Source: a virus (Duplodnaviria; Heunggongvirae; Uroviricota; Caudoviricetes). From it: a DNA stretch of 64,000 nt. Each line of letters begins with the position of its first letter. The stretch's first letter is position 1. The position numbers were made by a program, and so were the translations under genes. Shown piece by piece: positions 12,131 through 56,755 of the stretch. The DNA is taken from positions 1 through 64,000 of IMG/VR virus record IMGVR_UViG_3300031993_004551. One strand, 5' to 3'. Under the pieces are notes generated by a model, which saw only the letters and a program-made list of their open reading frames with translations, was not told the DNA's origin and did not search any database.

Positions 12131-12161
12131 CAAATATAGCAATTTCCTTTTGCTATATTTG
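12131..12161. promoter_or_regulatory. divergent promoter pair: CAAATATAGCAA (12131-12142, for the minus gene) and TTGCTATATTTG (12150-12161, for the plus gene)
   Basis: Two inverted copies of the motif separated by 7 nt between divergent genes. Confidence 0.55.
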
Positions 12162-13384: not shown

Positions 13385-13400
13385 CAAATATAGCAAAAAA
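13385..13400 (-). promoter_or_regulatory. promoter motif (minus-oriented) with ATG 4 nt downstream
   Basis: CAAATATAGCAAAAAA. Confidence 0.45.
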
Positions 13401-13445
13401 GGCGCCTCCCCGAAGGAAGACGCCCATAAGAGCAAAACTCTTTTA

Positions 13446-15117: not shown

Positions 15118-15132
15118 TTTTGCTATATTTGG
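15118..15132 (+). promoter_or_regulatory. promoter motif (plus-oriented TTTTGCTATATTTGG) 28 nt upstream of the ATG at 15161
   Basis: Motif match. Confidence 0.5.
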
Positions 15133-23995: not shown

Positions 23996-24010
23996 ACAAA
24001 TATAGCAAAA
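23996..24010 (-). promoter_or_regulatory. promoter motif (minus-oriented)
   Basis: CAAATATAGCAAAAA. Confidence 0.5.
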
Positions 24011-28359: not shown

Positions 28360-28374
28360 TAAATATAGCAAAAA
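28360..28374 (-). promoter_or_regulatory. promoter motif variant (TAAATATAGCAAAAA, minus-oriented) 47 nt upstream of the ATG at 28312
   Basis: Motif match with TTTA in place of TTTG. Confidence 0.4.
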
Positions 28375-28384
28375 TACGGAAACC

Positions 28385-28897
28385 TTACGGCTTCAGCATA
28401 TTCCTGACAGTGGTAATAGCCTTGCCGAGAAGGTTCTGACCGCGCCAGTTAGCCTCGTCGTCAATGCCGTTGGCACCCATAGGCATCAGGATTCCCCAAA
28501 TTCCGTCTACCGGGGAAGCCTCGACGAAAGTCTTCCCGTCGAAGCGAGGGTCGAGCAACTTCTCCAGCAAATCCGGATTCTGCCGGTACTTCTCGAGATT
28601 GACCTGAATCATTATGTCGTACCGTACCTTGGCCCACTTTTCGTTATCAAACGGCTTCACCTGACGGCCAAGCGACTTGGCATCCATCGGGGTAGCCGCC
28701 TTGAGTATGGCGTCCGCCGTCCTGGTGTCGCCGAAGTAGTTCGCCTTTTCCCACATGAACGCCTGTTCCGTGCAGAAGAAAGTTTCCGTCTTCTTGGTTG
28801 TGCCGTCGATATGGCTGCTGTAGGCGAAGCTGCACCGCCTGAAGTTGGATGGCCATTCCTTGTAGAAGAATACATGCGTATCAGTGATATCCAGCAT
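28385..28897 (-). CDS. NADAR-domain protein (YbiA/DUF1768-like)
   Basis: FFYKEWPSNF...FCTEQAFMWEKA...WAKVRYDIM...GIWGIL matches the NADAR fold signature. Start at ATG 28897. Confidence 0.72.
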   Translation of the reverse strand: MLDITDTHVFFYKEWPSNFRRCSFAYSSHIDGTTKKTETFFCTEQAFMWEKANYFGDTRTADAILKAATPMDAKSLGRQVKPFDNEKWAKVRYDIMIQVNLEKYRQNPDLLEKLLDPRFDGKTFVEASPVDGIWGILMPMGANGIDDEANWRGQNLLGKAITTVRNMLKP

Positions 28898-28905
28898 GGC
28901 TACCC

Positions 28906-29529
28906 CTATGCGTCGTTGATGACGCGGCTGAGCCACCGTCCGAAACGGTTATCGTACATGTTAAGTTCCGGGAGATGCTTGGCGATAGCATCGATGCAAT
29001 CGCTGACGCACTCGTCGATACCCTTACGGCCATCCACATAGACCACCGGCGTATTCCCGAGGAACTTCTCGGTCTCCGCATACGCGGTACGCAAATTCTC
29101 GAGACGCCCCGGAGTTTCCTTGAGCTTGGGTTCGCGGTCATAGCAGGTCTCGAGCGGGGTCTCCATGAAGATGTACAGGTCGGGCTGCTTGAAGATGTTG
29201 AAGTCCTGATACAGCTCCTCGCAGAACGAATAGATGCTCGGGGAGAATGCCTTGGCATAGGCAAGCCCGCTCCATAGGTACCTGTCGAGCAGAACCATAT
29301 TCCCGTTGTAGAACTTCTGCTGACGGAGACGGCCTTCGAGGAAAAACACCTCGCGCTTGGCGTCCTTGCCCTTGAACTCGTCCGAGTTGAGCCGGTCAGC
29401 CTCCTCGGTGGAAAACAGGGGTTCCTTGCTCCACTTGAATTCCGGGTAGCGCTTGGCGATAATCTTGGAAATCGTGGTCTTGCCGGAGTTGTCCACGCCT
29501 TCAAACACGATAAGCGGATTATGCTTCAT
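28906..29529 (-). CDS. tmk: thymidylate kinase-like P-loop kinase
   Basis: P-loop IVFEGVDNSGKTT. LDRYLWSGLAYAKA resembles the dTMP kinase DRY..S..AYQ motif. Start at ATG 29529 (MKHNPL), not 29652. Confidence 0.68.
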   Translation of the reverse strand: MKHNPLIVFEGVDNSGKTTISKIIAKRYPEFKWSKEPLFSTEEADRLNSDEFKGKDAKREVFFLEGRLRQQKFYNGNMVLLDRYLWSGLAYAKAFSPSIYSFCEELYQDFNIFKQPDLYIFMETPLETCYDREPKLKETPGRLENLRTAYAETEKFLGNTPVVYVDGRKGIDECVSDCIDAIAKHLPELNMYDNRFGRWLSRVINDA

Positions 29530-30382
29530 TCTTCGGGCCCTCCTTGGGCTTCTGTAAACGGGTCTCCACGAGGGCAGTGGTCGCGTCAGCGTGAACAATA
29601 TTATATCCCGGGTATTTCCCTGACGCATTAAAGTTCTTGGTGTACGGGTCAATCTGCATCTGGATGGCCGGGGCGGTATACTGGATAAGCCCGGTACGGT
29701 GGCAAATCTTGGTGTTTGCGTGGTGGTAATGGCCGCAGCAGACGGTAGTAACCTTAGCGCTCTTCATAAGCACCCGGACGAACTCAAAGTTTACCGGAAG
29801 CGTGAACTGTTCCTGGTTCATGAAGCGGTGGAACGGACGGACAAGCGGCATATGAGTGAACGCAGTCATCGTATGTTCGCCGACATCTGGCATTGCCAAC
29901 AGGCGGAACAGCCCTTCGACCGGATAGTCCTTATGCGCCGTATCGAGCAGGCATAACCTTGTATTGGAACTCTTGCCCTTGGCAAATGCAATAGCCTGTC
30001 CCGGGACATTAAACGAGCCGTCGAACCGAAATTCGAAAAATGCATTCTTATTGTAAAGGTATACGAACTTTTTACGGAACGCCGTAAATGCTTCCTCAAG
30101 AGCAGCACGGTTATCGTGGTTACCCGGGGTTACCAAGATTGCCGGCTGATACTCTTCAGGCAAGTCCCCCCCGAACGCCCGTTGCAATCCCTCGAGAAGA
30201 TTAGTGTAATCTTCGACCGTAGCGTCATCCACGAGGTCGCCGGTAAGGACGATAAGGTTGTAATGGCTGTACTGCCTTCCGGCATCAGCCAGTACGGCGT
30301 CCAGGTTTCCCTGGACATCGAACATACCCTTCTGGTCCCCCTTGAGGTGTATATCCGAAAGTTGAAGTATTAATGATTCCAT
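29519..30382 (-). CDS. calcineurin-like metallophosphoesterase (CpdA/Icc-type cyclic nucleotide phosphodiesterase-like)
   Basis: Motif series SDIHL, GDLVDD, GNHDN, GHYHH. Confidence 0.7.
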   Translation of the reverse strand: MESLILQLSDIHLKGDQKGMFDVQGNLDAVLADAGRQYSHYNLIVLTGDLVDDATVEDYTNLLEGLQRAFGGDLPEEYQPAILVTPGNHDNRAALEEAFTAFRKKFVYLYNKNAFFEFRFDGSFNVPGQAIAFAKGKSSNTRLCLLDTAHKDYPVEGLFRLLAMPDVGEHTMTAFTHMPLVRPFHRFMNQEQFTLPVNFEFVRVLMKSAKVTTVCCGHYHHANTKICHRTGLIQYTAPAIQMQIDPYTKNFNASGKYPGYNIVHADATTALVETRLQKPKEGPKNEA

Positions 30383-30401
30383 AGGTTTCTAGGTTCCTTA
30401 T

Positions 30402-30869
30402 TTATTTGTAAACAATCTTGATTACATGCGGTGTTTCCAAGAACACTCCCTTGATTATCTCGGAGACGACCTCCCATTCCAACCGGTCAAGCCCGCAGCC
30501 GATTTTCGGCATCACGATGACCTTAGGCTCGGCAAAGTTCATCGCAAGGTACTGCCGAAACGCAACCAGGGACTTAGTGAGCGTAAGATAGGTCGGCTTA
30601 TCCCACGAATGCTCCTTCGTTATCAAGTTAATAAAAGTCCCTTTATCTGTAACGACCGGCATCGCCATTCCCGGGAACAAGTCGATAGTATTGCCTTCCG
30701 GGTTATTGCTGCACCTGTACCGGCACTTCTTTTCCGCATTGTACATATCGCGGATGATTACCGGGGCTATTCCGCTGCCCCATGCGAGGTCGGCCGCGAT
30801 GCAATGGGCAATGATTACTCCGGTCGTATCGACGGTCGTGATATCACGCTTTTCTTCAAAATATCTCAT
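30402..30869 (-). CDS. macro-domain protein (ADP-ribose binding/processing)
   Basis: VIIAHCIAADLAWGSGIAPVI resembles the macro-domain phosphate-binding loop (VVNAAN...G.GIA). Size 155 aa. Confidence 0.55.
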   Translation of the reverse strand: MRYFEEKRDITTVDTTGVIIAHCIAADLAWGSGIAPVIIRDMYNAEKKCRYRCSNNPEGNTIDLFPGMAMPVVTDKGTFINLITKEHSWDKPTYLTLTKSLVAFRQYLAMNFAEPKVIVMPKIGCGLDRLEWEVVSEIIKGVFLETPHVIKIVYK

Positions 30870-31713
30870 CGGCTTTAATTTCCTTCGTTATCAGGCGCGA
30901 ATAAAGGTTCGCGTATGCTTTAAACTCCTCGGCATCGATGAACGGCCCAAGATTCACTACCGGGTTGTTATGCTCGTTCACCACCTCGAATACGCACTGC
31001 GGATGTTCTTTAGTAGCGCGGTAGTAGGTATTCTTCTTGAGCAGGAGAATCTTCCTCGTCGTATATGGCGTATTGGCATAGTTGATTGCCATGCCATAAT
31101 TGCCCTCAAATGCTATCCCGTAACCGTTGCCAAGCTTAAGTCTAGGGAACAACTTGCGGTCGGACGCATCCTTGCCGCATATTTTCTTAACCCATACAAG
31201 AAAACGGTAATCCTCGTCGTGGTAGGCATTCCATATCCGGGAAACCTCCTGCACACTCTCCACGCCCAGTTCGGAGTCTTCCGTTATCATATAACGGACG
31301 CCTTCCGGAATATCAACAATGCGAAGCGTATTGTTGTCGTTCAGCTTGTCGAGCATCTTGTAGTCGCCACCGAGAGCATCCACATAGGAAACAAGGGTGT
31401 CGCGCAGTTCGCTACCGGTAGTGTCAAAAGAAAGGTTCACCGATGCGGTATCGGGCACATCTCCATGTAGAGGATTACCGGAATCGTCATAGCAGGACTT
31501 TGTAGCGTTAAAGTGGACAAGCCAAGCCTTGATGAGCTTGCTCGAACCCCCGAAAACAGCCAAGGCTTTCCCGTTGGAGTCCGCAGGTAAAAAATAAGGG
31601 TCGGGGGATACGGTATCCCCTACCCTTTCGGCCAAATACATTGCCGCCCCGAGAGATATCTGGGGTACGCCGATACTTGTCGAGACGAGCACCTTTGGCA
31701 TTATACGCCCCAC
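30856..31713 (-). CDS. hypothetical protein (285 aa) inside the NAD island
   Basis: ORF overlapping both neighbours (14 and 13 nt). No recognisable motif. Confidence 0.5.
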   Translation of the reverse strand: MGRIMPKVLVSTSIGVPQISLGAAMYLAERVGDTVSPDPYFLPADSNGKALAVFGGSSKLIKAWLVHFNATKSCYDDSGNPLHGDVPDTASVNLSFDTTGSELRDTLVSYVDALGGDYKMLDKLNDNNTLRIVDIPEGVRYMITEDSELGVESVQEVSRIWNAYHDEDYRFLVWVKKICGKDASDRKLFPRLKLGNGYGIAFEGNYGMAINYANTPYTTRKILLLKKNTYYRATKEHPQCVFEVVNEHNNPVVNLGPFIDAEEFKAYANLYSRLITKEIKADEIF

Positions 31714-32486
31714 TTCGGAATACGGACGATATCGCGCTTGAACTGCGATGCCTTTACACGGGCCTGGATTTTACCCAAAACGCCAATATTAAGTGTTTCC
31801 GGATTATTGACATAAGTCCGGATGTCATCGTAAGTAAAGCCGAGGTTGTCCTCGTCCGTCTTACCACTGAGGCCGTCGGACGGAGCCTTGTAGACAAGAT
31901 GTTCCGGGAGGCCAAGCGCCATTCCCAGCTTGCAGACATCCTGCTTGAACAGGGTACCAATCGGAGCCAAATCGCCAGCAAGGTCGCCCCACAAGGTACA
32001 GTATCCGACGAGAGCTTCTGAGAAGTTTCCCGTGCAGAGAACGCGGCCTTCACCGAGCGCCTGTGCAACCATGTACAGCTTTTCCATACGGATACGCGGG
32101 GCGAGATTGATTTCTGCCTGACGGTCATACATGTGCTTCGTACCGAGACCCTTGATGAGTTCAATCTGCTTCAGCCCAATCTGGTAATCGTCGTGGATGT
32201 TGATTGTAAGCGTACGGGTAATCCCGGCAGCTACTGCACAATTGTGAGCATCTTCAAGGTCTGGCTGGACTCCGTTCGGGAGGAACACGCCGATTACCTT
32301 GTCCGCGCCTAAAGTCCTCGTGGCAAGCTTGCCGACAACCAAGGAGTCGGTTCCGCCGGACATACCGAGAACGAGAAATTCGCCGTGATTTTCTTGCATC
32401 GTGAGCTTAATCCACTGTCCGATGCTATCGGCCATTTCGATGAACTTGGCGGTTTCTTCTTCAGTCATTTTATCTGGCGTGAGCAT
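31701..32486 (-). CDS. nadE: NH3-dependent NAD+ synthetase
   Basis: PP-loop LVLGMSGGTDSLV. Downstream LCTGNFSEALVGYCTLWGD is characteristic of NadE. Start at ATG 32486 (TAATG coupling to pncA). Alternative ATG at 32467. Confidence 0.85.
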   Translation of the reverse strand: MLTPDKMTEEETAKFIEMADSIGQWIKLTMQENHGEFLVLGMSGGTDSLVVGKLATRTLGADKVIGVFLPNGVQPDLEDAHNCAVAAGITRTLTINIHDDYQIGLKQIELIKGLGTKHMYDRQAEINLAPRIRMEKLYMVAQALGEGRVLCTGNFSEALVGYCTLWGDLAGDLAPIGTLFKQDVCKLGMALGLPEHLVYKAPSDGLSGKTDEDNLGFTYDDIRTYVNNPETLNIGVLGKIQARVKASQFKRDIVRIPKWGV

Positions 32487-33106
32487 TATGCGGCTCCTTT
32501 GTAAATAGTGGGGACGACATCGCAGAGCATGGAACGGGCAAGCGTGAATGCCGCTTCCTGAGCCTGCTTGTTCTGTTCGGCATTGATGAAGCAAGCCGCA
32601 GTAGCACCGTCGACCACCTCAATTTTTGCATCCGGGAACCAAGCGCGGTCGATTGCCCAGTTGGAGGCATCACAGATGTCCGTGCAGGTACCGGTATAGC
32701 GAATGACGATGTTCTTGCCACGGGTAAGTGCGGCAACGGCATCCTGGTCCGTAGAGTCGATATCGAACATAACCTTCGGCCAGTTGATGAAACCAAAGTT
32801 ATGCTTGTCGATGATGATGGCATTCTTCTTCTTGAGAGCAGCCATGATTCTCGGCTCGATTTCCCATTCCGGTGTGCCGTAGACACAGTGAATCGGGAGA
32901 CGCTTGCCTTCAATAGACTGGTAATAGGAATCGTCGTCGAAGTGCGTATCGCGGGTGGCGATAATGATGCCGTCCCACGCCTCGATTTCGGCGATTACGG
33001 CGTCAATGATGGCTTCTGCAGCCGGATTCTTGAGGACTCCGGTTATGAATCCTATCTGCATGTCGATTACTTTGAGAATCTTGAGAGCTTTATCTATCAG
33101 GTTCAT
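32486..33106 (-). CDS. pncA: nicotinamidase (isochorismatase/cysteine hydrolase family)
   Basis: VIDMQIGF (D), conserved K region, GTCTDICD catalytic Cys. Confidence 0.82.
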   Translation of the reverse strand: MNLIDKALKILKVIDMQIGFITGVLKNPAAEAIIDAVIAEIEAWDGIIIATRDTHFDDDSYYQSIEGKRLPIHCVYGTPEWEIEPRIMAALKKKNAIIIDKHNFGFINWPKVMFDIDSTDQDAVAALTRGKNIVIRYTGTCTDICDASNWAIDRAWFPDAKIEVVDGATAACFINAEQNKQAQEAAFTLARSMLCDVVPTIYKGAA

Positions 33107-33121
33107 TTTTGCTTCTGTTGG

Positions 33122-34777
33122 TTATAAGCGTATTCCGCCGAAAAGGCCACACTGGTCTACTCGGTCAAGCGGTTGTTTCTTGATTCCATCCGGGAACTTC
33201 CTAATGTAGTCGTCGAGGATGCGGTTGTGGTGGAAAGCCAGCTGCATCTTCTGCGCATCGGAGATAGCAACCCACTGGACTTCCTTGGCGTCATCGGCAG
33301 GTTCAGCCCCGATGATATGCGGAATTTCAACGGCGAGACCCACATCGTATGCGCCGTGGTCTGGCTTGATGCCTGCGCGGGGGTCCGTCGGATAGTAGAC
33401 GCCGACACACTCGACTTCGGACTTGTCGATTGTGGTGATACTCGTCTCTTCCTTGACCTCGCGTAGTGCGGCTTCCTCGATATCCTCACCCGGGTCGGCG
33501 AATCCGCCCGGGAAGCACCAGTAGCCCATATACGGGCCATACTTCCTGCGGACAAGAAGGACGAATCCCTTGGAAACAATCAGAGTAGTCGCCGTCACGG
33601 AGAATGACGGGTAGTTATCCGGGTTTGCACGGGCAATCGCTTCCTTCTCGGCGGCATCGTATTCTTCCTGGGTAACCTGCCCGTACAACTTATTGTCAAC
33701 GATGTACTCGAGGGCTTCGCCCGGAACATCGGTACCGGCATACATCGGGTTGTGCAGGAGATTGAACCGTGCCTGCGTAGAGGATGTCGCCGGTATCCTG
33801 GCATTGACAATCCTGAGACGCTCCCCGACATCATCGTTGGGACGGTTAATCCTCCGGTCATTTAACGGAATGTCATTGCGCCCGAACACCATGAAGGAGA
33901 ACTGGGTAAGCAATTCCTCGCTATGCTCCCACCGGTGGAAATCGTGGAGCATACGCCATTCATCGGCGCCCATGCAGATGGTGACCTTCGACGGGTCAAG
34001 TTTGAGGGTTTCGGTGAGGAACTGGTATGTGCGCACCGGCTGTTCGACAATCTGAACAACATTGTCATCCTCGGCCCAACGGTCGGAATAACGACAAATT
34101 TCCTGAAATACTGTACGGAGCATGCGCTTTCGTGTGCCTGCCCTTACAGTATATTTCTTTTCGTCATTATTACTTACCATAAGGATGAGTGCAACCGGAA
34201 GAGGTCTATCGATATCAACCGGCTTAAACCTTTCGTTGGCAATCGCAATCATCTGGTTCAACAGGGCACGGATAATTTCCTTGTGACCGGTTGTCACCGG
34301 GTCGAACGCTCCTCCGTAAACAAGGATGTGCTTCGCATTGCGAACATTGTCATACAGAGTGACCTTATCCTTGACCTCAGCCGGCTTATCATGTAACGAC
34401 ATAACTGCAAACGACTTCTTTGCAAAGGACTTGGCAACTTCAACAGACTTGTTAAACACCGTGTAAAACAGGTCGCCCGGTGTTAAATCGATATCACACG
34501 ACTGGAGCACCTTAGAAGTCCTCTGGCGGCCCAAATCGTTAAGTTGTCCGGCAGCTTCTGCAATTCCATAGGCTTCCTTGCGGTCGACAAAGCGGAAATT
34601 GTTGCTATCTTCGCCGGCAATAAAGCCAGTACAGCTAGGTACATCGCTTGCAACCCATTCGTAGTCATCCTTGAGAGACATCAGGTTCATAGATGCATCG
34701 CCGTGGTCCTTCGCGACTGCAAACGGCTGACTGAAATTAGGGGCAAATCCCTTGAATGCACAGATAATCTTTTCCAT
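33122..34777 (-). CDS. nadM: nicotinamide/nicotinate mononucleotide adenylyltransferase fused to Nudix hydrolase, with extra N-terminal domain
   Basis: YGGAFDPVTTGH is the (H/T)xGH nucleotidyltransferase motif. C-terminal Nudix box GGFADPGEDIEEAALREVKEETSI. About 160-aa unassigned N-terminal region. Confidence 0.82.
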   Translation of the reverse strand: MEKIICAFKGFAPNFSQPFAVAKDHGDASMNLMSLKDDYEWVASDVPSCTGFIAGEDSNNFRFVDRKEAYGIAEAAGQLNDLGRQRTSKVLQSCDIDLTPGDLFYTVFNKSVEVAKSFAKKSFAVMSLHDKPAEVKDKVTLYDNVRNAKHILVYGGAFDPVTTGHKEIIRALLNQMIAIANERFKPVDIDRPLPVALILMVSNNDEKKYTVRAGTRKRMLRTVFQEICRYSDRWAEDDNVVQIVEQPVRTYQFLTETLKLDPSKVTICMGADEWRMLHDFHRWEHSEELLTQFSFMVFGRNDIPLNDRRINRPNDDVGERLRIVNARIPATSSTQARFNLLHNPMYAGTDVPGEALEYIVDNKLYGQVTQEEYDAAEKEAIARANPDNYPSFSVTATTLIVSKGFVLLVRRKYGPYMGYWCFPGGFADPGEDIEEAALREVKEETSITTIDKSEVECVGVYYPTDPRAGIKPDHGAYDVGLAVEIPHIIGAEPADDAKEVQWVAISDAQKMQLAFHHNRILDDYIRKFPDGIKKQPLDRVDQCGLFGGIRL

Positions 34778-34781
34778 AGCT

Positions 34782-34813
34782 CAAATATAGCAAAAATCCC
34801 CGTTTCCGGGGAT
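34782..34813 (-). promoter_or_regulatory. overlapping terminator hairpin (34796-34813) and promoter motif (34782-34796). ATG of nadM lies 4 nt downstream
   Basis: ATCCCCG-TTT-CGGGGAT hairpin. Its 3' T-run is the TTTTT of TTTTTGCTATATTTG. Confidence 0.55.
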
Positions 34814-34823
34814 TCTTTTAAGT

Positions 34824-36074
34824 CTAATCGGGTAGTCCGGTGTACTTCTTTCCGGTATCCACGCGCTCAAACTTCGGCATCGTGAGCTTTACCGCCATGA
34901 AGTAATCCTCGCCCATAGGTGTCGCGTTCGGGATAGCCCTTACCGCAATCAGTGATGAAGACTCATCGCGGTATATCTGAATATACAGCTCGCCGTTCTC
35001 GCCGCGGTCACCATTGTAGTACAGGAGACGCTGACCATCCGCTGTGCAAAGCTCCTTGCGGAAATCCTTGTCCAGCGTCGCGTGTAGAACATGCGTCTCG
35101 GGGTTGTACGAACGCTCACAGCCGGCGCCGGAATACCCCTCCACCAACGCAAGCAGCATATAGGCTTCGTCAATGTGGCACTGCGATGCAACCGTAGGGT
35201 CATGCTGGCGCAACTGGTAGTGAATCTCGGTAAGCCTTGCGAGAAGCGCGGGAACCTTCGGGGAACGGTCCGCGACAGCCTGCATCGCGCCGTTCAGCGT
35301 ATCCCAGAACACATCAAGGATGTCCAGGGTCTTCGAGCGGAATTCCCGGTATACCCTGTCGATATCGGCCGTGCACTCGTTGTACTTTTTGATGACCGTC
35401 TTGGCGGCACGGTCAATGTAGTCGAAGTCACTTTCGTCAGGATGCTTCGCCTCGTCGATTACTGTGTAGTCATCGAGAAGGCATTCCACAATCCTTTCAG
35501 GACCCTTTACATTGCACCGGAATCCAAACTTACGCGGAACCAAGATATCATTGTCGACAATATTAATCAGGGAATTCGCCCCGAGCATGGAAATCTTGCG
35601 GATACCCTCGATATTTTCGTTTACAAGGATGTTCCCGTCAAGCATTCCCTGCATCGTCTTCCTACCGGGATTAAACCATTCTGCGGACGAAACCTGTGAC
35701 AACAGGATATGGAACCGGTTCATAGCAACCTTTGCTTCTTCTGCCGTCTCATCGGTAAAGGTATGGTCCTTGAAGTCACGGTAGGACGGCTTCGGCTTAT
35801 AGGTCTTTTCATTATCGAGAGTCATCCCGAAGTTCTCGATAATGTAGTTCCTTGCGTCGGCTATAGCCTCCTCGGGCCGTTTCATATCACGGTTAATCAC
35901 CATAGCCCTGCCATGGGGCTGCCGCTTGTTGAACTTGATGCCGAACCCGTAACGGGTAACATTCAGCGTACCGACGACCTTGCAGGCATTTTCACCATCC
36001 GTATCGACAATATCAGCGGAAAAAAGAAGGAATGGCTTTGGAGCCACCCCTTCCTCGAATATCACAGTACGCAT
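34824..36074 (-). CDS. hypothetical protein (416 aa), translationally coupled to pncB
   Basis: Start ATG overlaps the pncB stop (TAATG). No recognisable motif. Confidence 0.6.
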   Translation of the reverse strand: MRTVIFEEGVAPKPFLLFSADIVDTDGENACKVVGTLNVTRYGFGIKFNKRQPHGRAMVINRDMKRPEEAIADARNYIIENFGMTLDNEKTYKPKPSYRDFKDHTFTDETAEEAKVAMNRFHILLSQVSSAEWFNPGRKTMQGMLDGNILVNENIEGIRKISMLGANSLINIVDNDILVPRKFGFRCNVKGPERIVECLLDDYTVIDEAKHPDESDFDYIDRAAKTVIKKYNECTADIDRVYREFRSKTLDILDVFWDTLNGAMQAVADRSPKVPALLARLTEIHYQLRQHDPTVASQCHIDEAYMLLALVEGYSGAGCERSYNPETHVLHATLDKDFRKELCTADGQRLLYYNGDRGENGELYIQIYRDESSSLIAVRAIPNATPMGEDYFMAVKLTMPKFERVDTGKKYTGLPD

Positions 36075-37492
36075 TAGGCAGCCACCTCGAACTCGTCGAT
36101 GATATTACCCTTCGGGTCAAACTTAACCAGTTTTCCACCGTAGATAATCTCATCGAGCTGCTTACGGCTGAAGCGGTCAATCGGAGCCCAGTTGTATGCG
36201 AGCTTTGTATCGATGATTGTCTTCTGGTCGGTGCACATGCACTTGCCTTCACTGTCGGAAAGCTTGACGACATGCTGGCCGTTGCATTCGGTGACCTTCA
36301 TCACGATGGGCAACGGCTGCTTTGCACCCGGCTTGCAGCAGATTGTGGCAGAGAGGAATGTACCGATACCGAATGCGACATTGATATCCTTGTAGAACTC
36401 CCAGGCAATCTTGAGTGCCTTGTCCGCATCCAAGCTGTCGCTCCAGCAGGCCGTCTTGGACTTCGGGTCGACCTTTCCACGCCTGTAGTGGTCGATGAGC
36501 ATGTGCCCCCACTTGAACGGGTCGCCGCTGTCGTGGCGGCAGCCGTCGTAGAGCTTCATGAAGGACACGTCGAAGTCGCGGAGGAACGCAGCGAAACCGA
36601 AGTTGTCGCTCAAGGCGATACCGAGGGAACCGCGGAACTCGTCGTCCCAGTTGGAAAGGACCCACTTCTGGGCGTCCTTCAGGCGAATGCCCTTTGCCTG
36701 TGCGATTGCGTAAAGCTCGTGGGCAAATGTGCCAATCGCTTTACAGTCGCACTTGATTGCGAGCCAGACGTTGGATGTTCCCACGAATGCCGGGCAGAAC
36801 TTGAGGAGGTACATGACCATGTACTCGTTCCACTCGTTGCTGATGCCACGGCGGACACCGAAGTCGGAAACCGTGAAGCGGCATCCTTCGCGCCAAGCCT
36901 TGTTCCACTTGACGACGACTTCCTCGAGGTTCTTCTTGGCGTATTCCCAGTCGAACTCCTCGCCCTCGAAGTAGAGCTGCTGCACAATCTGCAGCACATA
37001 TATTTCGAACCAGAACACATCGAGCTGCGGACCTTCGGCAACGATGCGGACGCCGCCGTTCACGGACGGGTCGGCGAATACGCGGATGTACTTGCGGTCA
37101 AGCTGGAGCTTCTCGAGGTAACGGATGAAGTCATCGCTGAGCCACGGGAGCTTCTTGCGGATGCCCTCGATTTCTTCCTTGGTGTAGCGCAAGGTGCAGA
37201 GCCAGTCGAGTTCGGCACAGATGTCCTCAATGAGATAAGTGAGGTCTACGCCCTTCGTACGGAGGCAGAATTCCCATTTAGCCTTATCATTATAACAGCG
37301 ATGCTTGTAGAACTGACCCATTGAGTATTTATAAGTATCTGTTTGGGTCAGATGCTCAATGATATGCTTATCCGGGTTGCGCCGGGTAAACTTCTTGATA
37401 GCCTTCGTGATAATCTTCTTGCGCTTCGGACGGGTCTTGAACGGGTCAATTCCCTTCTTGAGCAAAGCCTTGTCACTTAGTTTCCGTGTCAT
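36074..37492 (-). CDS. pncB: nicotinate phosphoribosyltransferase
   Basis: TDTYKYSMGQ, WFVGTSN, GTFAHELY, LGIALSDNFGFAAFLRDF, GCRHDSGDP and KVTECNGQHVVKLSDSEGK all match E. coli PncB blocks. Extra 40-aa basic N-terminus. Confidence 0.9.
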   Translation of the reverse strand: MTRKLSDKALLKKGIDPFKTRPKRKKIITKAIKKFTRRNPDKHIIEHLTQTDTYKYSMGQFYKHRCYNDKAKWEFCLRTKGVDLTYLIEDICAELDWLCTLRYTKEEIEGIRKKLPWLSDDFIRYLEKLQLDRKYIRVFADPSVNGGVRIVAEGPQLDVFWFEIYVLQIVQQLYFEGEEFDWEYAKKNLEEVVVKWNKAWREGCRFTVSDFGVRRGISNEWNEYMVMYLLKFCPAFVGTSNVWLAIKCDCKAIGTFAHELYAIAQAKGIRLKDAQKWVLSNWDDEFRGSLGIALSDNFGFAAFLRDFDVSFMKLYDGCRHDSGDPFKWGHMLIDHYRRGKVDPKSKTACWSDSLDADKALKIAWEFYKDINVAFGIGTFLSATICCKPGAKQPLPIVMKVTECNGQHVVKLSDSEGKCMCTDQKTIIDTKLAYNWAPIDRFSRKQLDEIIYGGKLVKFDPKGNIIDEFEVAA

Positions 37493-38699
37493 TTTCGTTA
37501 TCCCTGTTGATGTTTTCCTGTTTAAATTCCTGCATTTTCAGATTCTCCAAGGTTACCTTGCGCATACCCTTGTAGATACTCTCGCGGATGGCCATCCAGC
37601 CTTCCTCGGATATCGAACCATTCAATGCCCACCGTCCCGCCGAAGCGGCCGCGCCGATGACCGTCGGGTAATCGTCGAACTCCTTGCGAGCCAGCTCGTA
37701 AACCGCCCGGCCGGCGTCAACCTTGTCGCTAACACATCTGTCGGCGAATCCCTGTATACGAGTATACAAGCTGTCGAAGATTTCGCCGAAGCTTTTCAGG
37801 AACGCCTTAATGTCCACCAGTTCCTCCGGGACGCTCTTGACGGTTTCGTCCGGGAACTTCCCGTCCTTCCACGAGAATATATCCAAGAGGTTCCTCGGGG
37901 TGAGGCTGTGGAACAGCTTCTGCGCGGCAAGGAACTCCGGACCCTTGAGCTTCACCTTGAACCCGTCGCCGTAGGTAAGGACGAGCCCTTCCTTGCTTGC
38001 CGGCAGCTTCTTGACATACTCGCAGGTAGCCTCGAAGGACGGAAGCTCGATGCGCTCGGCGAGAGGCACTCCCATCGCCTTGGCAATCATCTTCAGGTTC
38101 TCGTAGGAATATTCCCTGCCGGTAGCATTCAGGATTACCCCGGTAAGCACACAGGCCTCGTAGTCGTACCTGATAGGATGGACATCCTCCTTGCAGAGAA
38201 TCTCGAACATATAGGTACATCCGGAAGCCATGTAGTTCTGGATTCCCCTCTCGCGGAGCCACTTTTCGGCCCATTCGCCCTGGAAAGCCGTGAATGCACC
38301 CGAAGTGGTTACCAAAAGATTCCCGTCGACGATACCCGCGATGCACAGCGAACCGTCAAGCTTGTCGGTCGCGCTGAACCATCCTTTCGGGTCGAACTTC
38401 GGCTCGTACCCGGGAATCTTGCTGAGCAGGTCGAACAGCGAAGTATGCTGCATCGTCTCGCTATAGAGTTCCCCGAAGTTGAAGAACTTGGACCACGGGC
38501 GCAGTACGCACTCGCCGTCGCTGACCCTAAATACATGCCCCCTCGAGTTGAGGGTGATTTCGTCCCATCGCTGGTCGTATATCGTGTACTCGGTATACTT
38601 GAACTTGACATATTTCCTGTCAGGCGAATATGTCATGATTAAGTCCGGGCCGTCGGCACGGGCGATATACTCGGAAAGCGGGGGTAATTTTTCTACCAT
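37473..38699 (-). CDS. RNA ligase, T4 Rnl1 family
   Basis: LNSRGHVFRVSDGECVLRPWSKFFNFGE resembles T4 Rnl1 [31 protein letters not shown]. Motif I TDKLDGSL resembles KEDGSL. Confidence 0.85.
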   Translation of the reverse strand: MVEKLPPLSEYIARADGPDLIMTYSPDRKYVKFKYTEYTIYDQRWDEITLNSRGHVFRVSDGECVLRPWSKFFNFGELYSETMQHTSLFDLLSKIPGYEPKFDPKGWFSATDKLDGSLCIAGIVDGNLLVTTSGAFTAFQGEWAEKWLRERGIQNYMASGCTYMFEILCKEDVHPIRYDYEACVLTGVILNATGREYSYENLKMIAKAMGVPLAERIELPSFEATCEYVKKLPASKEGLVLTYGDGFKVKLKGPEFLAAQKLFHSLTPRNLLDIFSWKDGKFPDETVKSVPEELVDIKAFLKSFGEIFDSLYTRIQGFADRCVSDKVDAGRAVYELARKEFDDYPTVIGAAASAGRWALNGSISEEGWMAIRESIYKGMRKVTLENLKMQEFKQENINRDNENDTETK

Positions 38700-38730: not shown

Positions 38731-38745
38731 CAAATATAGCAATTT
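38731..38745 (-). promoter_or_regulatory. promoter motif (minus-oriented) 31 nt upstream of the rnl ATG
   Basis: CAAATATAGCAATTT. Confidence 0.5.
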
Positions 38746-41724: not shown

Positions 41725-42438
41725 TTATTCCAGCGCGACTACCGGATGTCCCTCGCACAGCCCGTGGTAGACATGGTTGGCCGTGTAGAGCTTTTCCGCC
41801 GGTATCGGGGCGTAGGCGACTTCCCAGGACACATTGTTCTGCATCTTGAAGTCCTTCCACGGGAGGGAGCTGAACCGTTCCTCCTCATGGGTATGCCCGT
41901 GTACAAGCACGGTCTTCGCCGGGTCGAGCTTCTGCCGGTACGCCATCAGGTTCCTGGAATCCGGACGGTCCACCTGACGCTTCGAGAAGAACGGAAAGTG
42001 CTGACAGAAATACACCTTGTCGTGCCAACGCAGTACGGCGTAGTCCCTGATGTCGACCAGGCCGCCATGTACGCTCTTGTCGTGGTTCCCGCGGATGTAC
42101 AGCTTGATACCCGGGAGCGGACCGTACAGAGCGTTGAACTTCTCGTCGAATTCCTCCTGCGTATCGGAGTGCCCCATCATGAAATCACCGAGGAACACCA
42201 CGACATCATCCGGCCGAATCAGCGTCATCCACTTATTGCGCATGTCGTCGTTCATTTCCTTAGTAGTCTGGTATGTCCGGATACGCTCGAAGTGCTTCGG
42301 GGACGCCGGAGTGAGCTTTGCGTGATTGAAATGGGTATCCGATATGAAGAACAGCCTGGAGCTATCCGGGATGACCTGGGAGAAATATGTTCGTTCGGAC
42401 TGTTCGTCCGGAATTGAAAGATTTAAAACTTCAGACAT
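41725..42438 (-). CDS. calcineurin-like metallophosphoesterase (lambda phosphatase-like)
   Basis: ISDTHFNH, GDFMMG, GNHD, VHGHTH. Start at ATG 42438 (MSEVLNL). Confidence 0.7.
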   Translation of the reverse strand: MSEVLNLSIPDEQSERTYFSQVIPDSSRLFFISDTHFNHAKLTPASPKHFERIRTYQTTKEMNDDMRNKWMTLIRPDDVVVFLGDFMMGHSDTQEEFDEKFNALYGPLPGIKLYIRGNHDKSVHGGLVDIRDYAVLRWHDKVYFCQHFPFFSKRQVDRPDSRNLMAYRQKLDPAKTVLVHGHTHEEERFSSLPWKDFKMQNNVSWEVAYAPIPAEKLYTANHVYHGLCEGHPVVALE

Positions 42439-43666
42439 TTTTATTTTCCTCTGGGAGTCTTCGGCGTTCCCGAAGTTCTCCCGGTGTGACACGGAATACC
42501 GGCAAGCTCGAAAACTCGTCTGGGAGCGACGCCAGCAAGTCGATGAACATTTCATCGAGCTGCTCGTCGGTTACCGGGTCGTGGAGATATTTAGAATCCT
42601 TGAAGCATTCCTCAACTTCCTTCACAAGGGAATCGCTCAGGTTCATCATATCTTCGTATGAATATGTACCCTTCTTGATACTGAGAAGGTAATCGCGCTT
42701 GTCGCTGCAGTCTACCGTCACTTTTCCGGTAAGCGCGATGTTCTTAGCTGTAAGCAGGAGACGGATGCAGTGCATCGTATTCTTTGCATCGTATCCCTTG
42801 CCGTGTTTTTCGGTTTCCGCATACCTGACCTCGTTGCGTTCCTTCTTTACCCAGTTCCAGTAATGGGTATGTTCCTTGCAGTCATGAGAGAACGCATCTG
42901 GGTTGAATGTCAGGAAGGCAACCGGATTGAGACCCTTCGGAATATGCTTGGCAAGCTGGATATCGCAGGCCTTCTTTTCGTCCGTGACGACGCCGTATGC
43001 CCAGCGCCATTTGTGTTCAGGAATTTCCTCGGGCGGACGGTCTGGCTGCAACAAGGAATAGCTAAGTCCTTCAGCTTTATCCTGATAGTACAGCGCATAG
43101 GTATTCTTGCAGTGGTCAATCTTTGCCAATCCGTACCACTTCTGGTCTTGTTTTGCCAGAGTATCCTGCTCAGCAAGGAACTGCTTGAACGGCTTGCACT
43201 TGATGTCCTGGCCGTACACATAACAGTAATCGAGAACCTGCGGAGCTTCCTCGGGGCACGGGTTATTGAATTTCTTGTTGAGGCCGTACGCGCGGCTCAA
43301 CTGAGTCTTGGCATATTCCTGGTAGGACTTGAGGACTCGGGTTGTAACCCAGATATCCTTCGGAATCGCGTCGAAAAGTTCCTTACCCTTGAGTATGCAC
43401 CTTTCGGGGCTATTGAGCAACTCCAGAGCGTTCGGGTTGCCCTGCTGCAAATACTGGAGGAAGTTGGAGAGTTCCCAGTATTCGGTGTTATTCTTGTCGT
43501 CAGCTACACGCATATCCGGCTTGAACGACACCCTTTCCTTCATCGGCAACACATAGACGCCGCGGACATCAGTATCAGATGTCTCGGTGGCAAGTCCGAA
43601 AGACTGGCTTCCCACGACAGCTTCCATGAGTATCCAGCCCTTTTCCTTGAGTTCTTCAATAGTCAT
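42431..43666 (-). CDS. Pol-beta superfamily nucleotidyltransferase (411 aa)
   Basis: VVGSQSFGLATETSDTDVRGVY matches the minimal NTase signature [GS]x9-13Dx[DE]. Confidence 0.6.
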   Translation of the reverse strand: MTIEELKEKGWILMEAVVGSQSFGLATETSDTDVRGVYVLPMKERVSFKPDMRVADDKNNTEYWELSNFLQYLQQGNPNALELLNSPERCILKGKELFDAIPKDIWVTTRVLKSYQEYAKTQLSRAYGLNKKFNNPCPEEAPQVLDYCYVYGQDIKCKPFKQFLAEQDTLAKQDQKWYGLAKIDHCKNTYALYYQDKAEGLSYSLLQPDRPPEEIPEHKWRWAYGVVTDEKKACDIQLAKHIPKGLNPVAFLTFNPDAFSHDCKEHTHYWNWVKKERNEVRYAETEKHGKGYDAKNTMHCIRLLLTAKNIALTGKVTVDCSDKRDYLLSIKKGTYSYEDMMNLSDSLVKEVEECFKDSKYLHDPVTDEQLDEMFIDLLASLPDEFSSLPVFRVTPGELRERRRLPEENKNV

Positions 43667-43682: not shown

Positions 43683-43716
43683 CAAATATAGCAAAAAGAC
43701 CGCCGAAGCGGTCTTC
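43683..43716 (-). promoter_or_regulatory. promoter motif (43683-43697) overlapping a terminator hairpin (43696-43715). 16 nt to the ATG at 43666
   Basis: AAGACCGC-CGAA-GCGGTCTT hairpin directly abuts CAAATATAGCAAAAA. Confidence 0.5.
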
Positions 43717-43770: not shown

Positions 43771-44901
43771 CTAAAGTCGTGGGATTCTGGGAGTTGCCAC
43801 AGATGGGCAACATGTCCCAAAGGTAGATGCCCCTACCTTACATAAGTTAATTGCGGCATTCCTATCCCTATCGTGTTCCGCACCACATTTAGGACATATC
43901 CAATGACGGATTGACGCATCCTTCAATTTGTGGTTTTTATAACCGCATTCGGAGCATAGCTGACTGGATGGATACCACTTGTCTGCGTACATGACCGTCT
44001 TACCAGTCCTATGAGCTACATATTCGAGAACGCTCAAGAAGGTATCGAACCCGAAGTCATACATGGACTTTTTGTACTTCCTGGATAGATTACCCAAGTC
44101 CAGCGTTTCAAACACCATCACATCGTAATCACGGCAGAACCGCCGAGCCAACTTCCAGTGCATGTCCGAACGCTGATTAGCCACCTTCTCGTGTAGCTTC
44201 TGCAATGTACGCAGCGAGCCTCGCTTACCTTTAGACTTTCGGTATTTCTCCGATAAGTTCCTTAAAGAATTGAGGTTCTTCTGCAAGATTTTAGGCATAC
44301 TGCAATCATCACCGTTAGAGGAAACCAAGAAGTCATGCACACTGAAGTCGAAACCAACGATTTCACCCGATTTAGTCCACTCTGTCTGTGTACATTCTTG
44401 CTCTACGACTACATAAATATAGAAACCATTACTCTTGCGTTTGACGGTGAGCGTTTTAATCTTGCCGTCGAAATCCCTGCTGTTCCAGTAGGGAAAGTCT
44501 TTCTTGCCTATCTTAACATGATTTAAGTCGTGAAACTTGTATCCAGCTTGCTTCGTCGTGAATGAATGATATTTAGCCGTCTTCTGGAAGTGAGGAGGAT
44601 TAGTCTTCTTTCCAGCTTTCAAATTCGAGAAGAATAAATGGTATGCCCGGTCTATCCTATCCGTTATGTCTTGGATGGCTTGCGAAGGAACTTCGTTCCA
44701 CTCTGTATATTGTTTCTTCAACTTTGTGAGGTACTTCTGTAACTGGTACTTATTCAACATCTTATGGTAGATGCCATAGTACCGACGGTGCAGAGCAATA
44801 CAGTGGTTGAATATCCGACCAGCAATAACAAGTATATTGTCGAGATACTTCAAGGAATCCCGATTGTACAGCTTGTATTTGTATGTATTCAATTCAACCA
44901 T
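43771..44901 (-). CDS. tnpB: TnpB (IS605 OrfB family)
   Basis: RuvC-I VGFDFSV. SQLCSECGYKNHKLKDASIRHWICPKCGAEHDRDRNAAINL is the Zn finger plus RuvC-III. Start at ATG 44901 (MVELNTYKYKLY). Confidence 0.85.
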   Translation of the reverse strand: MVELNTYKYKLYNRDSLKYLDNILVIAGRIFNHCIALHRRYYGIYHKMLNKYQLQKYLTKLKKQYTEWNEVPSQAIQDITDRIDRAYHLFFSNLKAGKKTNPPHFQKTAKYHSFTTKQAGYKFHDLNHVKIGKKDFPYWNSRDFDGKIKTLTVKRKSNGFYIYVVVEQECTQTEWTKSGEIVGFDFSVHDFLVSSNGDDCSMPKILQKNLNSLRNLSEKYRKSKGKRGSLRTLQKLHEKVANQRSDMHWKLARRFCRDYDVMVFETLDLGNLSRKYKKSMYDFGFDTFLSVLEYVAHRTGKTVMYADKWYPSSQLCSECGYKNHKLKDASIRHWICPKCGAEHDRDRNAAINLCKVGASTFGTCCPSVATPRIPRL

Positions 44902-44955
44902 AGATAAGCAAAATGTCCACAGAACGCTTAATTTGCCCGTCAGCATTCCGTGGAC

Positions 44956-45241: not shown

Positions 45242-46432
45242 TTAAATGTGGCCGTCAGAGGTTCCGAAACAGCGAATCGGAGAATACTCGATTAAATATG
45301 CCCAATCGTCGCCGACCGTCGTAATTTCGCCGACAAATACCGATTCCGTAATGCCGTCAAGCTGGAGTATCTTACGGTTATACATATTGTCCTTGAACGA
45401 GAAACATTCGGTCTTAAGATTATTGACCAATTCGTCGCAATGGGCCAATACTGCTCGTGCGAGCAGTTGCCTTAAGGTCTTCTCATTCATATTCAGCCAA
45501 GGTTCACGAGTCAATTCGCTGTTAAAATTGTTGGCATAGAATCTTTGCACATCGAGAATACCTGAAATATCCACCGAAGCAACGGCCAAGGTCGCCGCCT
45601 TATAGAACTTCGCCACATCGACTTCTTTGGCTGAAGCTTTAGGGTATATTGTCTCGAGGCCGCCCGTCTTTGGCGGTTCAGCCGTTTCGACCGGTTCTTC
45701 GGAAATGGTAGCTTCCGGCGCATCAGCGTCTACCGTGGTCACCTTGATAGCATTTGCCGCCTTCTTTACGGGAGGATGCACGACAGGTTCCGTATCATGA
45801 GAATCGTGCGGGTAATCACGGTCGACTACGGATATCGGCTGGCCGAAAGATTCGGACGCCAAAGTATTATATAGTTCAATTGTACCGATTCTAGCCAACA
45901 AGTCATTCATCATGATTGACGGTGAGCCAATCGTGGCGGCAGGAATATTATGCCATTCGGCAACATCAGGGTATACGGAATTATCATACAACAGTCCATC
46001 GGTATACCCAAGTTGAGTGTTATGTCCAAAACAAGCGCACAGCCAAATGCTATAATCGTTGTATTCAAGTATAAAGCCGGAATCAATCTTTTTATCAGTG
46101 GATAAAAAGTCTGCATAATCGCGCAAGCACAACGAACAATTAAAAGTCCATTCTGGGTAGTTGCTATCGTAAAAACGCGATTTCCCAACACGGTCAATAT
46201 AGGGAACACCCGAATTATTTTCAAGTGTAACATTAAGTTCTTTCTTTAAAAGCTCATTAATGGCGTCACAACGAGATGCAACTGAATCTAACGGTTGCTT
46301 ACCGTCCTTTCCCATTCGATATAAATATGATAACGCCTTGCCTAATGCAGAATCGGCTAATGATTCAATAAAGCGTTCTTGATTAGTAACACTCTTATGT
46401 ATATAGAAACTGATATTATAAGTAATTTTCAT
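45242..46432 (-). CDS. hypothetical protein (396 aa)
   Basis: Long ORF. Promoter motif 4 nt upstream of the ATG. Confidence 0.5.
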   Translation of the reverse strand: MKITYNISFYIHKSVTNQERFIESLADSALGKALSYLYRMGKDGKQPLDSVASRCDAINELLKKELNVTLENNSGVPYIDRVGKSRFYDSNYPEWTFNCSLCLRDYADFLSTDKKIDSGFILEYNDYSIWLCACFGHNTQLGYTDGLLYDNSVYPDVAEWHNIPAATIGSPSIMMNDLLARIGTIELYNTLASESFGQPISVVDRDYPHDSHDTEPVVHPPVKKAANAIKVTTVDADAPEATISEEPVETAEPPKTGGLETIYPKASAKEVDVAKFYKAATLAVASVDISGILDVQRFYANNFNSELTREPWLNMNEKTLRQLLARAVLAHCDELVNNLKTECFSFKDNMYNRKILQLDGITESVFVGEITTVGDDWAYLIEYSPIRCFGTSDGHI

Positions 46433-46436
46433 ATTT

Positions 46437-46451
46437 CAAATATAGCAAAAA
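46437..46451 (-). promoter_or_regulatory. promoter motif (minus-oriented) with ATG 4 nt downstream
   Basis: CAAATATAGCAAAAA. Confidence 0.5.
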
Positions 46452-46808
46452 CTACAGCTCGAGCAGTCGGTCCAGTTTCCCGGTCTCGACCATCGTGTCG
46501 ATTTGGGCATACGCCCTTTCGATAACAGCCAGTCCACCATCGATATCCTCGTCGCCGAACAGCAGCACGATGTCGTCATCAAGGTCGATTGACATGCTGT
46601 GAATCTGGTCCCCGAAGCATATCGTCCGCTTGTTTGGCGCAAGCACATCTATGTAGCAACGGTCGACACCAGGGTTGAATACCATCGGGTACCCGTGGAT
46701 GTCGCAGTACTTGACGAGCTTCATTATGCGCTCGTCTTCCCCGGTCCACTCCAGCAGGTTCACCCGGGCTGTCTTAGACGGGTCAAACGGCCCATTCTTC
46801 GGATTCAT
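46452..46808 (-). CDS. hypothetical protein (118 aa)
   Basis: ORF. 4-nt overlap with the upstream gene. Confidence 0.45.
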   Translation of the reverse strand: MNPKNGPFDPSKTARVNLLEWTGEDERIMKLVKYCDIHGYPMVFNPGVDRCYIDVLAPNKRTICFGDQIHSMSIDLDDDIVLLFGDEDIDGGLAVIERAYAQIDTMVETGKLDRLLEL

Positions 46809-51388: not shown

Positions 51389-51551
51389 CGGTTAATTTTC
51401 TCCTACCTGTCGTACAAAACAACCGGTCTGTATCAACAAGCTACAAATATATCCACACGGTGTCAACAGCGAACAAATAAGATGTCAACAAAAAAACGGA
51501 AAGGTGCCCGGTCATCCCGGGCACCTTGAACACTATGAGCATTAAGAATAT

Positions 51552-52267: not shown

Positions 52268-52307
52268 CAAATATAGCAAAAAAGAAAAGTCCCGGTGGAA
52301 CCGGGAC
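52268..52307 (-). promoter_or_regulatory. promoter motif (52268-52283) plus terminator hairpin (52289-52307). 27 nt to the infC ATG
   Basis: GTCCCGG-TGGAA-CCGGGAC hairpin followed (minus strand) by a T-rich run merging into TTTTTTGCTATATTTGG. Confidence 0.5.
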
Positions 52308-52325
52308 CCGAATGAGCCGTTTCGA

Positions 52326-56739: not shown

Positions 56740-56755
56740 CAAATATAGCAAAAAA
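56740..56755 (-). promoter_or_regulatory. promoter motif (minus-oriented)
   Basis: CAAATATAGCAAAAAA. Confidence 0.5.

Follow-up and report, generated by a model that had tools for sequence, protein, structure and literature searches.

Promoters read by the primary sigma factor of the Bacteroidota (sigma-A, or sigma-ABfr) carry a -7 element, TAnnTTTG, and a -33 element, TTTG. The -7 element of Flavobacterium johnsoniae has been resolved to T-12 A-11 T-8 T-7 T-6 G-5, with bona fide promoters 4 or 5 nucleotides (nt) from the transcription start site (TSS) and a -33 element that is weak or absent, and differential RNA sequencing in Bacteroides thetaiotaomicron likewise centred the element at -7. 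Leaderless mRNAs, in which the TSS lies at the start codon, are known from this phylum but are rare: leaders shorter than 10 nt make up 3.7% in B. thetaiotaomicron, leaderless transcripts 5.5% in Flavobacterium psychrophilum, and leaders of 10 nt or less 13% in F. johnsoniae. The cI mRNA that phage lambda transcribes from PRM starts at the A of its AUG and is translated from this 5'-terminal AUG, and in published work the leaderless route is 70S-based and strongly AUG-dependent. Leaderless phage mRNAs and leaderless Bacteroidota mRNAs are each already known, and our search of the literature on leaderless transcripts in Bacteroidota phages found no description of a class such as the one reported here. 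We analysed a promoter box in a T4-like phage assembled from metagenomes (Caudoviricetes; IMG/VR record IMGVR_UViG_3300031993_004551, positions 1 to 64,000; this 64,000-nt stretch is referred to below as the window). At four sites, one of them before a NadM-like gene, the box is separated from an ATG by 4 nt, and at a fifth site by 7 nt, so placed that the genes concerned are predicted to be leaderless or nearly so.

The predicted geometry is that of the cellular leaderless mRNAs. Those are rare, whereas five of the 14 promoters of this class in the window have the short-gap arrangement, which is conserved gene by gene. Lambda provides a single regulatory gene expressed in lysogens, whereas here we predict a class of lytic-phage genes (an NAD-salvage enzyme, a 396-amino-acid (aa) protein and small membrane proteins), and the host ribosomes, unlike in the lambda case, would be ones that ignore Shine-Dalgarno sequences. 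Middle and late transcripts of the Thermus phage P23-45 reportedly come from a promoter class without a -35 element, many of them leaderless. Our literature search found nothing usable on this point, the host phylum and promoter consensus differ from those of the window phage, and we treat the resemblance as a lead only.

The exact box TATATTTG occurs 16 times in the window, compared with 2.02 +/- 1.48 times in shuffled sequences, and none of 100 shuffles reached 16. The generic form TANNTTTG was not enriched in the window (39 versus 31.4 in shuffles), and the excess is therefore specific to the exact box. Sigma-70-type promoters were also at shuffle level (27 versus 20.2; 26 versus 24.6), and a second promoter class, TTGAC-N16-21-TAnnTTTG, present in the related loci L124 and L258, was absent from the window. 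The prefix TTGC (usually TTTTTGC) precedes 14 of the 16 copies, giving the longer box TTGCTATATTTG, usually TTTTTGCTATATTTG; the full 15-mer form can be written (T)TTTTGCTATATTTG. All 14 prefixed boxes lie at gene boundaries, each aimed at an open reading frame (ORF) that opens at most 51 nt downstream, and the two unprefixed copies lie at 55728-55735, within a gene, and at 51444-51451. TATATTTG matched the -7 element TAnnTTTG (TAHHTTTG) perfectly at 14 of 14 sites. In the 50 nt upstream, conservation was limited to the T-run and GC that adjoin the box, with no -33 element (TTTG or TTG, at variable spacing), and at several sites a terminator hairpin occupies the expected -33 region. The T-run belongs to the promoter, because promoters without a hairpin still carry it. 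The phage box thus resembles cellular sigma-A promoters in its perfect TAnnTTTG, its position at gene boundaries and the occurrence of the same 15-mer before Bacteroidales cellular genes (see below). It differs in lacking the -33 element, in carrying the T-run and GC at -19 to -13, often as the U-tract of a terminator, and in being nearly invariant across its 14 sites, whereas cellular promoters are more variable.

We defined the gap as the number of nucleotides between the final G of the box and the ORF-opening ATG. This gap is 4 nt at ATG 34777 (-), 13380 (-), 46432 (-) and 9636 (+), and 7 nt at ATG 6826 (-), with four of the five short-gap sites on the minus strand. The initial annotation had reported these positions and spacers, and on recount they were accurate in every particular; it had also placed the leaders of other genes at 16-50 nt, which was right, as the nine other boxes gave 16, 19, 24, 24, 26, 29, 31, 33 and 51 nt. 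Motif search located these leadered boxes at 9586-9597 (-), 12131-12142 (-), 12150-12161 (+), 15120-15131 (+), 23997-24008 (-), 38731-38742 (-) and 56740-56751 (-), before the RlaP gene at 43683-43697 (-), with a 16-nt leader that serves as a leadered control, and before a homologue of translation initiation factor 3 (IF3) at 52268-52282 (-), with a 26-nt leader. With f(ATG) = 0.0173, the chance that four or more of the 14 boxes have an ATG at a particular offset is P = 7.9e-5, and 4.8e-3 when 61 offsets are allowed for. The proportion of leaders below 10 nt (5/14) gave P = 1e-4, 7e-4 and 0.03 against the published rates of 3.7%, 5.5% and 13%, respectively. The ATG was the ORF-opening codon in all five cases in the window and in every 4-8-nt case in relatives, where the scan for downstream starts considered ATG only. 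Folding of the first 40 nt of the five predicted 5' ends gave weak structures, with minimum free energies of -0.7 to -5.9 kcal/mol (z +0.4 to +1.2), none individually significant.

We propose that the box is a strong phage promoter, built from a perfect -7 element and a T-rich/GC extension with no conserved -33 element, and that its reader is most likely the host sigma-A polymerase. Transcription would start 4-5 nt past the final G of the box. Because the box-to-TSS distance is 4-5 nt in Bacteroidota, a 4-nt gap would place +1 on the A of the ATG, so that the mRNAs of the 4-nt genes would begin with AUG and that of the 7-nt gene (6826) would carry 2-3 extra nt. A ribosome carrying initiator tRNA would then bind the 5'-terminal AUG, and the nine other promoters of the class would yield conventional leaders of 16-51 nt. 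The four 4-nt genes are very probably expressed without a 5' leader. It is probable, at a somewhat lower level of confidence, that the host sigma-A polymerase starts at the A of the ATG and that the 5'-terminal AUG is translated by the leaderless route; the identity of the polymerase, the precise TSS and the way in which the mRNAs are translated are inferred. The initial annotation had suggested that these transcripts begin at or next to the start codon, and at the level of sequence this suggestion holds, supported by the published distance from the -7 element to the TSS, by conservation of the gap in relatives and by conservation of the protein N-termini.

The NadM-like gene (33122-34777, -; 551 aa) shows the arrangement in full. 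Its product has cytidylyltransferase and NUDIX domains and a T4_Y16D-like N-terminal region, and its start region on the minus strand (34777-34797) reads ...ATCCCCGGAAACGGGGAT TTTTGC TATATTTG AGCT ATG GAA AAG... The promoter box TTTTTGCTATATTTG lies at 34782-34796 (-), followed by the spacer agct (34778-34781) and ATG 34777. Folding identified an 11-bp intrinsic-terminator hairpin with a GAAA loop at 34792-34817 (-; -17.0 kcal/mol), whose T-run is the T-tract of the promoter. The whole 46-nt intergenic region is a single cassette consisting of a terminator hairpin, a T-run common to terminator and promoter, a -7 box, 4 nt and the ATG. The 117-aa ORF (13027-13380, -) is preceded by the same single cassette, with a box at 13385-13399 (-), the spacer tatt before ATG 13380, and an 11-bp hairpin (13400-13425, -; -22.0 kcal/mol) fused to the promoter T-tract. 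Fusion of the box to an intrinsic terminator, the U-tract serving as promoter T-run, was also seen at RlaP and IF3.

Relatives retained the 4-nt gap before NadM. In L128 and L129 (89-91% protein identity) we found hairpin, box, 4 nt and ATG, with the spacer agct in L128 and aact in L129. The homologue in L130/L131 (44% identity) is a 417-aa protein without the N-terminal domain; its hairpin stem differs (ATCCCGCCAGACGGCGGGAT) and its 4-nt spacer is tgac, yet the gene-caller start falls at the 4-nt spacing and the N-terminus is MEK, as in the window. In L258 (38% identity), where the gene order is different, the hairpin is followed by TTTTGCTATATTTA, gggt and ATG, with the box in the form TATATTTA. 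The 4-nt gap before NadM is thus common to three lineages (100/44/38% protein identity), and stays while hairpin sequence and the N-terminal architecture of the protein vary. An in-frame TGA lies two codons 5' of the NadM ATG, and between relatives the first 14 codons show three synonymous changes versus one non-synonymous change. The NadM gene was also found on a 109-kb ENA contig.

The 396-aa gene (45242-46432, -), to which we could assign no function, showed the same behaviour. Its box (46437-46451, -; spacer aaat; ATG 46432) directly adjoins the stop codon (46452-46454) of the upstream 118-aa gene, and in the window and in relatives alike the entire intergenic region consists of stop codon, box and 4 nt. 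The spacer letters were aaat in the window, aagc in L132 (48% identity), aagt in L133 (56%) and gggc in L257. Ten homologues of the protein (50-100% identity) all begin MKI(T/K)YN (MKITYN in the window), with M1, K2, I3, Y5, N6, S8 and F9 invariant, and from codon 2 onward the DNA changes are mainly at third positions. By this conservation the ATG adjoining the box is the authentic start of both NadM and the 396-aa gene.

These data bear on the possibility that the true start codons are internal and the box-adjoining ATGs coincidental, an outcome the initial annotation had named as one that would count against it. For NadM and the 396-aa gene this is excluded by N-terminal conservation, as the 396-aa proteins are conserved from Met1 and substitutions from codon 2 are mostly synonymous in both genes. 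What favours it is that the three small ORFs have no comparative check. Four ATGs at one offset would be most unusual by chance (see the P value above), and independent gene callers chose the same starts for these ORFs, except that JGI extends the 91-aa ORF to a TTG inside the promoter. Internal starts across the class are therefore hardly credible.

The three small ORFs all encode hydrophobic proteins. The 117-aa ORF described above is of membrane type and predicted leaderless; the 91-aa ORF (9636-9911, +) is likewise membrane-type and predicted leaderless, and the 99-aa ORF (6527-6826, -), with an N-terminal hydrophobic segment, is predicted near-leaderless from its geometry (box 6834-6848, -; 7-nt spacer tagtatc; ATG 6826; predicted leader 2-3 nt). 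A tblastn search with all three against all fetched loci returned no homologues. The box of the 91-aa ORF (TTGCTATATTTG without a T-run; 9620-9631, +; spacer tgat; ATG 9636) forms half of a divergent pair with the box at 9586-9597 (-). An ORF at the corresponding position in L033 has weak similarity to the 91-aa ORF (E = 1e-4, pairwise), a 5-nt gap and the same divergent-promoter layout, and is its probable counterpart; the equivalent pair in L033 (3599-3648) has a 5-nt gap to the ATG on both sides. The window contains two such back-to-back pairs, at 9586-9631 and 12131-12161. The 12-mers of the latter are just 7 nt apart, and simultaneous binding of two polymerases there is therefore hardly possible.

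Divergent pairs are difficult to reconcile with the idea that the motif acts in RNA rather than DNA, as an A/U-rich unstructured translation enhancer within longer mRNAs. Such a role has a precedent in that Bacteroidia are published to rely on A-rich unstructured upstream sequence and not on Shine-Dalgarno pairing. However, back-to-back motifs between divergent genes share no common transcript, motif and ATG are separated by as little as 4 nt and as much as 85 nt, the motif often lies directly 3' of a terminator, and it matches a DNA promoter consensus exactly. We consider this explanation very improbable.

To compare spacing across relatives, we assembled non-redundant sets of promoters with a downstream ORF, comprising 31 boxes at first and 33 after three loci were added. 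Gaps of 4-8 nt were found at 13/31 and 15/33 boxes, the other 18 gaps being 13-85 nt, and both pooled sets lacked gaps of 0-3 nt and of 9-12 nt. The absence of 9-12-nt gaps, in what is a small sample, fits two separate modes of initiation. Spacer letters drift between orthologues, and spacer length does not. Longer leaders are also kept in relatives (RlaP 15-16 nt, IF3 25-26 nt, RNA ligase 31 nt). Further gaps of 4-5 nt occur before unrelated genes at L131 5824 (a lipoprotein-like 153-aa ORF), at three sites in L033 and at L258 7020, and also at L071 6703 (179 aa), a position equivalent to the promoter at 46444 of the window. The base before the ATG was a pyrimidine in 11/11 distinct 4-nt spacers and 5/6 distinct 5-nt spacers (16/17 overall; nominal P about 1e-4, orthologous sites not being independent), which as a Y(-1)R(+1) start-site preference is supportive only.

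The spacing also bears on a compaction model. Under this model the boxes are real promoters but the tight gap merely reflects genome compaction, and most of the protein would be made by ribosomes that re-initiate past the upstream stop on longer transcripts (read-through or polycistronic), with little or none made from the promoter-proximal ones. Such a model would suit the compactness of phage genomes, the low share of leaders under 10 nt in the mapped Bacteroidota transcriptomes (3.7-5.5%) and the 396-aa gene, whose box adjoins an upstream stop without a hairpin. But strong, GC-rich 11-bp terminators stand directly 5' of the NadM and 117-aa promoters, so that supply by read-through is unlikely there, and the divergent pair at 9586-9631 has no upstream co-directional gene to supply a transcript. 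Compaction alone would set neither a 4-5-nt gap with a preceding pyrimidine across lineages nor an empty 9-12-nt range. We therefore regard it as an unlikely explanation.

We also looked for the box outside phages. In a collection of genomes representing species, more than 120 sites have the identical 15-mer with an ATG 4-5 nt after it, and Bacteroidota, mostly gut and rumen Bacteroidales, account for 68 of the 120 matches listed. This shows that the box is host-type and that host genomes use the layout too. Whether the motif is followed by an ORF of 100 aa or more did not discriminate Bacteroidota matches from those in other genomes (26/44 versus 17/36), and only the taxonomic share of the matches is therefore used, as a lead. 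In four Alistipes metagenome-assembled genomes (MAGs; L135, L234, L239 and L253, 47-60% GC), an identical TTTTTGCTATATTTG with 4-5 nt and ATG precedes an orthologous gene for a secreted protein of ~293 aa, a candidate conserved leaderless gene of a cellular host. The phage host is probably a Bacteroidota of the gut, with rumen Bacteroidales as candidates.

T4-type phages re-programme the host polymerase in stages, and the box might instead be a phage-specific, middle-type promoter that needs a phage factor or sigma, with a TSS distance other than 4-5 nt, so that some ATGs would fall outside the transcript or leaders would be longer. Consistent with this, a conserved -33 element is lacking, the 12-15-mer hardly varies, a typical trait of promoter classes specific to phages, and few copies of the box occur in L124-L127, which are loci of structural genes. 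On the other hand, the box fits the host-type -7 consensus perfectly, Alistipes and other Bacteroidales MAGs have the identical 15-mer with 4-5 nt and ATG before ordinary genes of the cell, and an ATG that is conserved together with the N-terminal residues has to lie within the transcript. We judge a phage-specific promoter with a different start site to be improbable.

Several points weigh against the proposal that host sigma-A polymerase starts on the ATG and yields leaderless mRNAs. The distance to the TSS was taken over from promoters of cellular genes in other Bacteroidota, and since no -33 element is conserved the box could depend on a phage factor that may affect start-site choice. The 396-aa gene has no terminator upstream, and polycistronic translation is also possible there. 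The starts of the small ORFs come from ORF geometry and independent gene callers, without diverged homologues, and the orthologous sites pooled above lack statistical independence. A purine is found at +5 after the box in 13/18 leadered boxes, which fits a TSS at that position and is not decisive. With these points taken into account, the leaderless state of the 4-nt genes is a prediction well supported by geometry and conservation.

The initial annotation had noted an IF3 homologue at 51552-52241 (-) and suggested that it could tune the translation of the leaderless genes. The homologue is real: its ORF matched IF3_N (3.6e-25) and IF3_C (1.2e-7; 32.0 bits, just under the Pfam cut-off of 34.8), and the protein matched IF3 chains from E. 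coli and Thermus in the PDB (1e-18), with the segment RFRGREMAH conserved. Residues 7-55 alone form a second IF3_N domain (3e-8; 34.1 bits, Pfam cut-off 26.9). A BLASTP comparison of the N-terminal 62 aa with the second N domain gave no match, but the Pfam profile does detect it. The phage protein, with the order IF3_N, IF3_N, IF3_C, is 229 aa long, compared with about 170-200 aa for the usual form with a single N domain. Two IF3_N stretches were also present in the relatives L071 (2512-3198) and L255 (6512-7222), and some 60 protein clusters with lengths of 227-240 aa group in a clade well apart from cellular IF3; cellular IF3s match the phage form at no more than 42% identity over 52-76% of its length. 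The gene is syntenic in L071, L132 and L133. Its promoter belongs to the class described here, with a leader of 25-26 nt, and in the window a terminator hairpin at 52287-52309 precedes this promoter.

IF3 genes encoded by phages have been described in huge phages, where they were read as redirecting host translation (Al-Shayeb et al. 2020). Compared with those, the clade of the window has a duplicated N domain (IF3_N x2 + IF3_C), of which we found no description, and the contigs recovered for this phage group, of about 110-200 kb, do not exceed the 200 kb that mark a huge phage. In E. coli, leaderless translation is inhibited when IF3 is raised and can be helped by low levels of it. If IF3 is coupled to the leaderless class at all, a shut-off role is therefore at least as likely as stimulation. 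The double-N-domain IF3, a form confined to this phage group, might serve as a timer that shuts off initiation at 5'-AUGs when enough of it has accumulated, or as a variant factor like mitochondrial IF3 through which the Shine-Dalgarno-blind ribosomes of Bacteroidia would favour leaderless phage mRNAs over those of the host; any such coupling is speculative and we give it a low probability.

Contigs with a terminase identical to that of the window also encode Gp23-type capsid and T4-type portal proteins. Among deposited phages (INPHARED), megablast with 10 kb of the window found no relative. IMG/VR scans with the single proteins NadM and 396-aa protein, and an alignment-based scan of IMG/VR, gave no match; an alignment-based scan of JGI metagenomes returned one locus, 97% identical. 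A search for the host via a TnpB copy across 185,579 genomes found no relative. Scanning IMG/VR with TTTTGCTATATTTG returned mostly chance singletons, and we retained as motif users only L071/L078, L033, L023 and L039, among which only L071/L078 had protein homology to the window, apart from a TnpB-type match in L033. A histogram of ATG offsets across 127 TTGCTATATTTG sites in IMG/VR loci was uninformative.

Other upstream regions in the window contain variants of the box or other repeats. At 28360-28371 (-) the box has the variant form TTGCTATATTTA, where the relatives L128 (16411) and L129 (16405) have TATATTTG; it is followed, within the 46-47-nt leader of a 696-aa gene, by a terminator-like hairpin that may be an attenuator. 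Upstream of ClpP (57575-58141), the region 58142-58215 (-) contains a pair of direct repeats (TATCAACA) followed by CATATAAT, 8 nt and ATG, a different pattern conserved in L255 (about 2970-3039) and L257 (about 2370-2439), which may be a second promoter or operator class with a likewise very short leader. The region 5' of a 475-aa gene (51389-51551, -) has repeated TGTTGACA / TTGTTGATACA boxes around the TATATTTG copy that lacks TTGC, a strong terminator (51501-51527) and AGGAG 13 nt before the ATG, all conserved in L133. PhoH (ATG 60049; TATATTTA + 4 nt; 60037-60051, +) was considered as a sixth short-gap gene and rejected, as the layout is missing at the L255 and L257 orthologues and, standing immediately 3' of the IscB ORF, borders an IscB insertion; coincidence or the insertion itself probably accounts for it.

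The NadM-like gene lies in a block of NAD genes (about 28385-37492, -) that also includes NAPRTase (36074-37492), an isochorismatase-family, nicotinamidase-like gene (32486-33106), NAD synthase (about 31701-32594) and NADAR (28385-28936). The block has the appearance of a full salvage route of the Preiss-Handler type, and relatives as distant as L258 retain it. Genes of RNA-repair type were also present, namely a T4 Rnl1-type RNA ligase (37473-38699, -), an RlaP nucleotidyltransferase with an adjacent metallophosphatase (42431-43666, -), a second RNA ligase with a PHA02142 OB domain (52326-53669, -) and a Thg1-like enzyme (15161-16048, +). A HEARO RNA (Rfam RF02033, 97.7 bits, full length; 58446-58686, +) lies directly 5' of an ORF with RRXRR and HNH domains (58738-60021, +), and together these are an IscB-type OMEGA element inside the phage. 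The 64 kb also contain four TnpB / OrfB_IS605 (Cas12f-like TNB) ORFs, at 2994-4337 (+), 43771-44946 (-), 47933-49165 (+) and 62142-63941 (-). Relatives carry more TnpB, and insertion sites vary between otherwise syntenic relatives; the TnpB that separates the 396-aa gene from RlaP in the window, for example, is missing from L133.

The terminator-promoter-ATG cassette of ~45 nt is a compact expression module of potential use for Bacteroides engineering. If the leaderless prediction fails, the strict 4-5-nt spacing will still need another explanation. Ribosomes of the Bacteroidia work without Shine-Dalgarno pairing, and their choice of start codon is under active study. A single promoter class that is conserved and sharply bimodal (no leader versus at least 13 nt) would offer matched natural substrates in which a 5'-terminal AUG can be compared with a leadered AUG, and the co-resident IF3 with its duplicated N domain is a concrete factor for testing on both types of mRNA. 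Should the tentative coupling of this IF3 to the leaderless class prove true, the phage would carry its own mode of translation initiation together with a matching promoter-ATG architecture.

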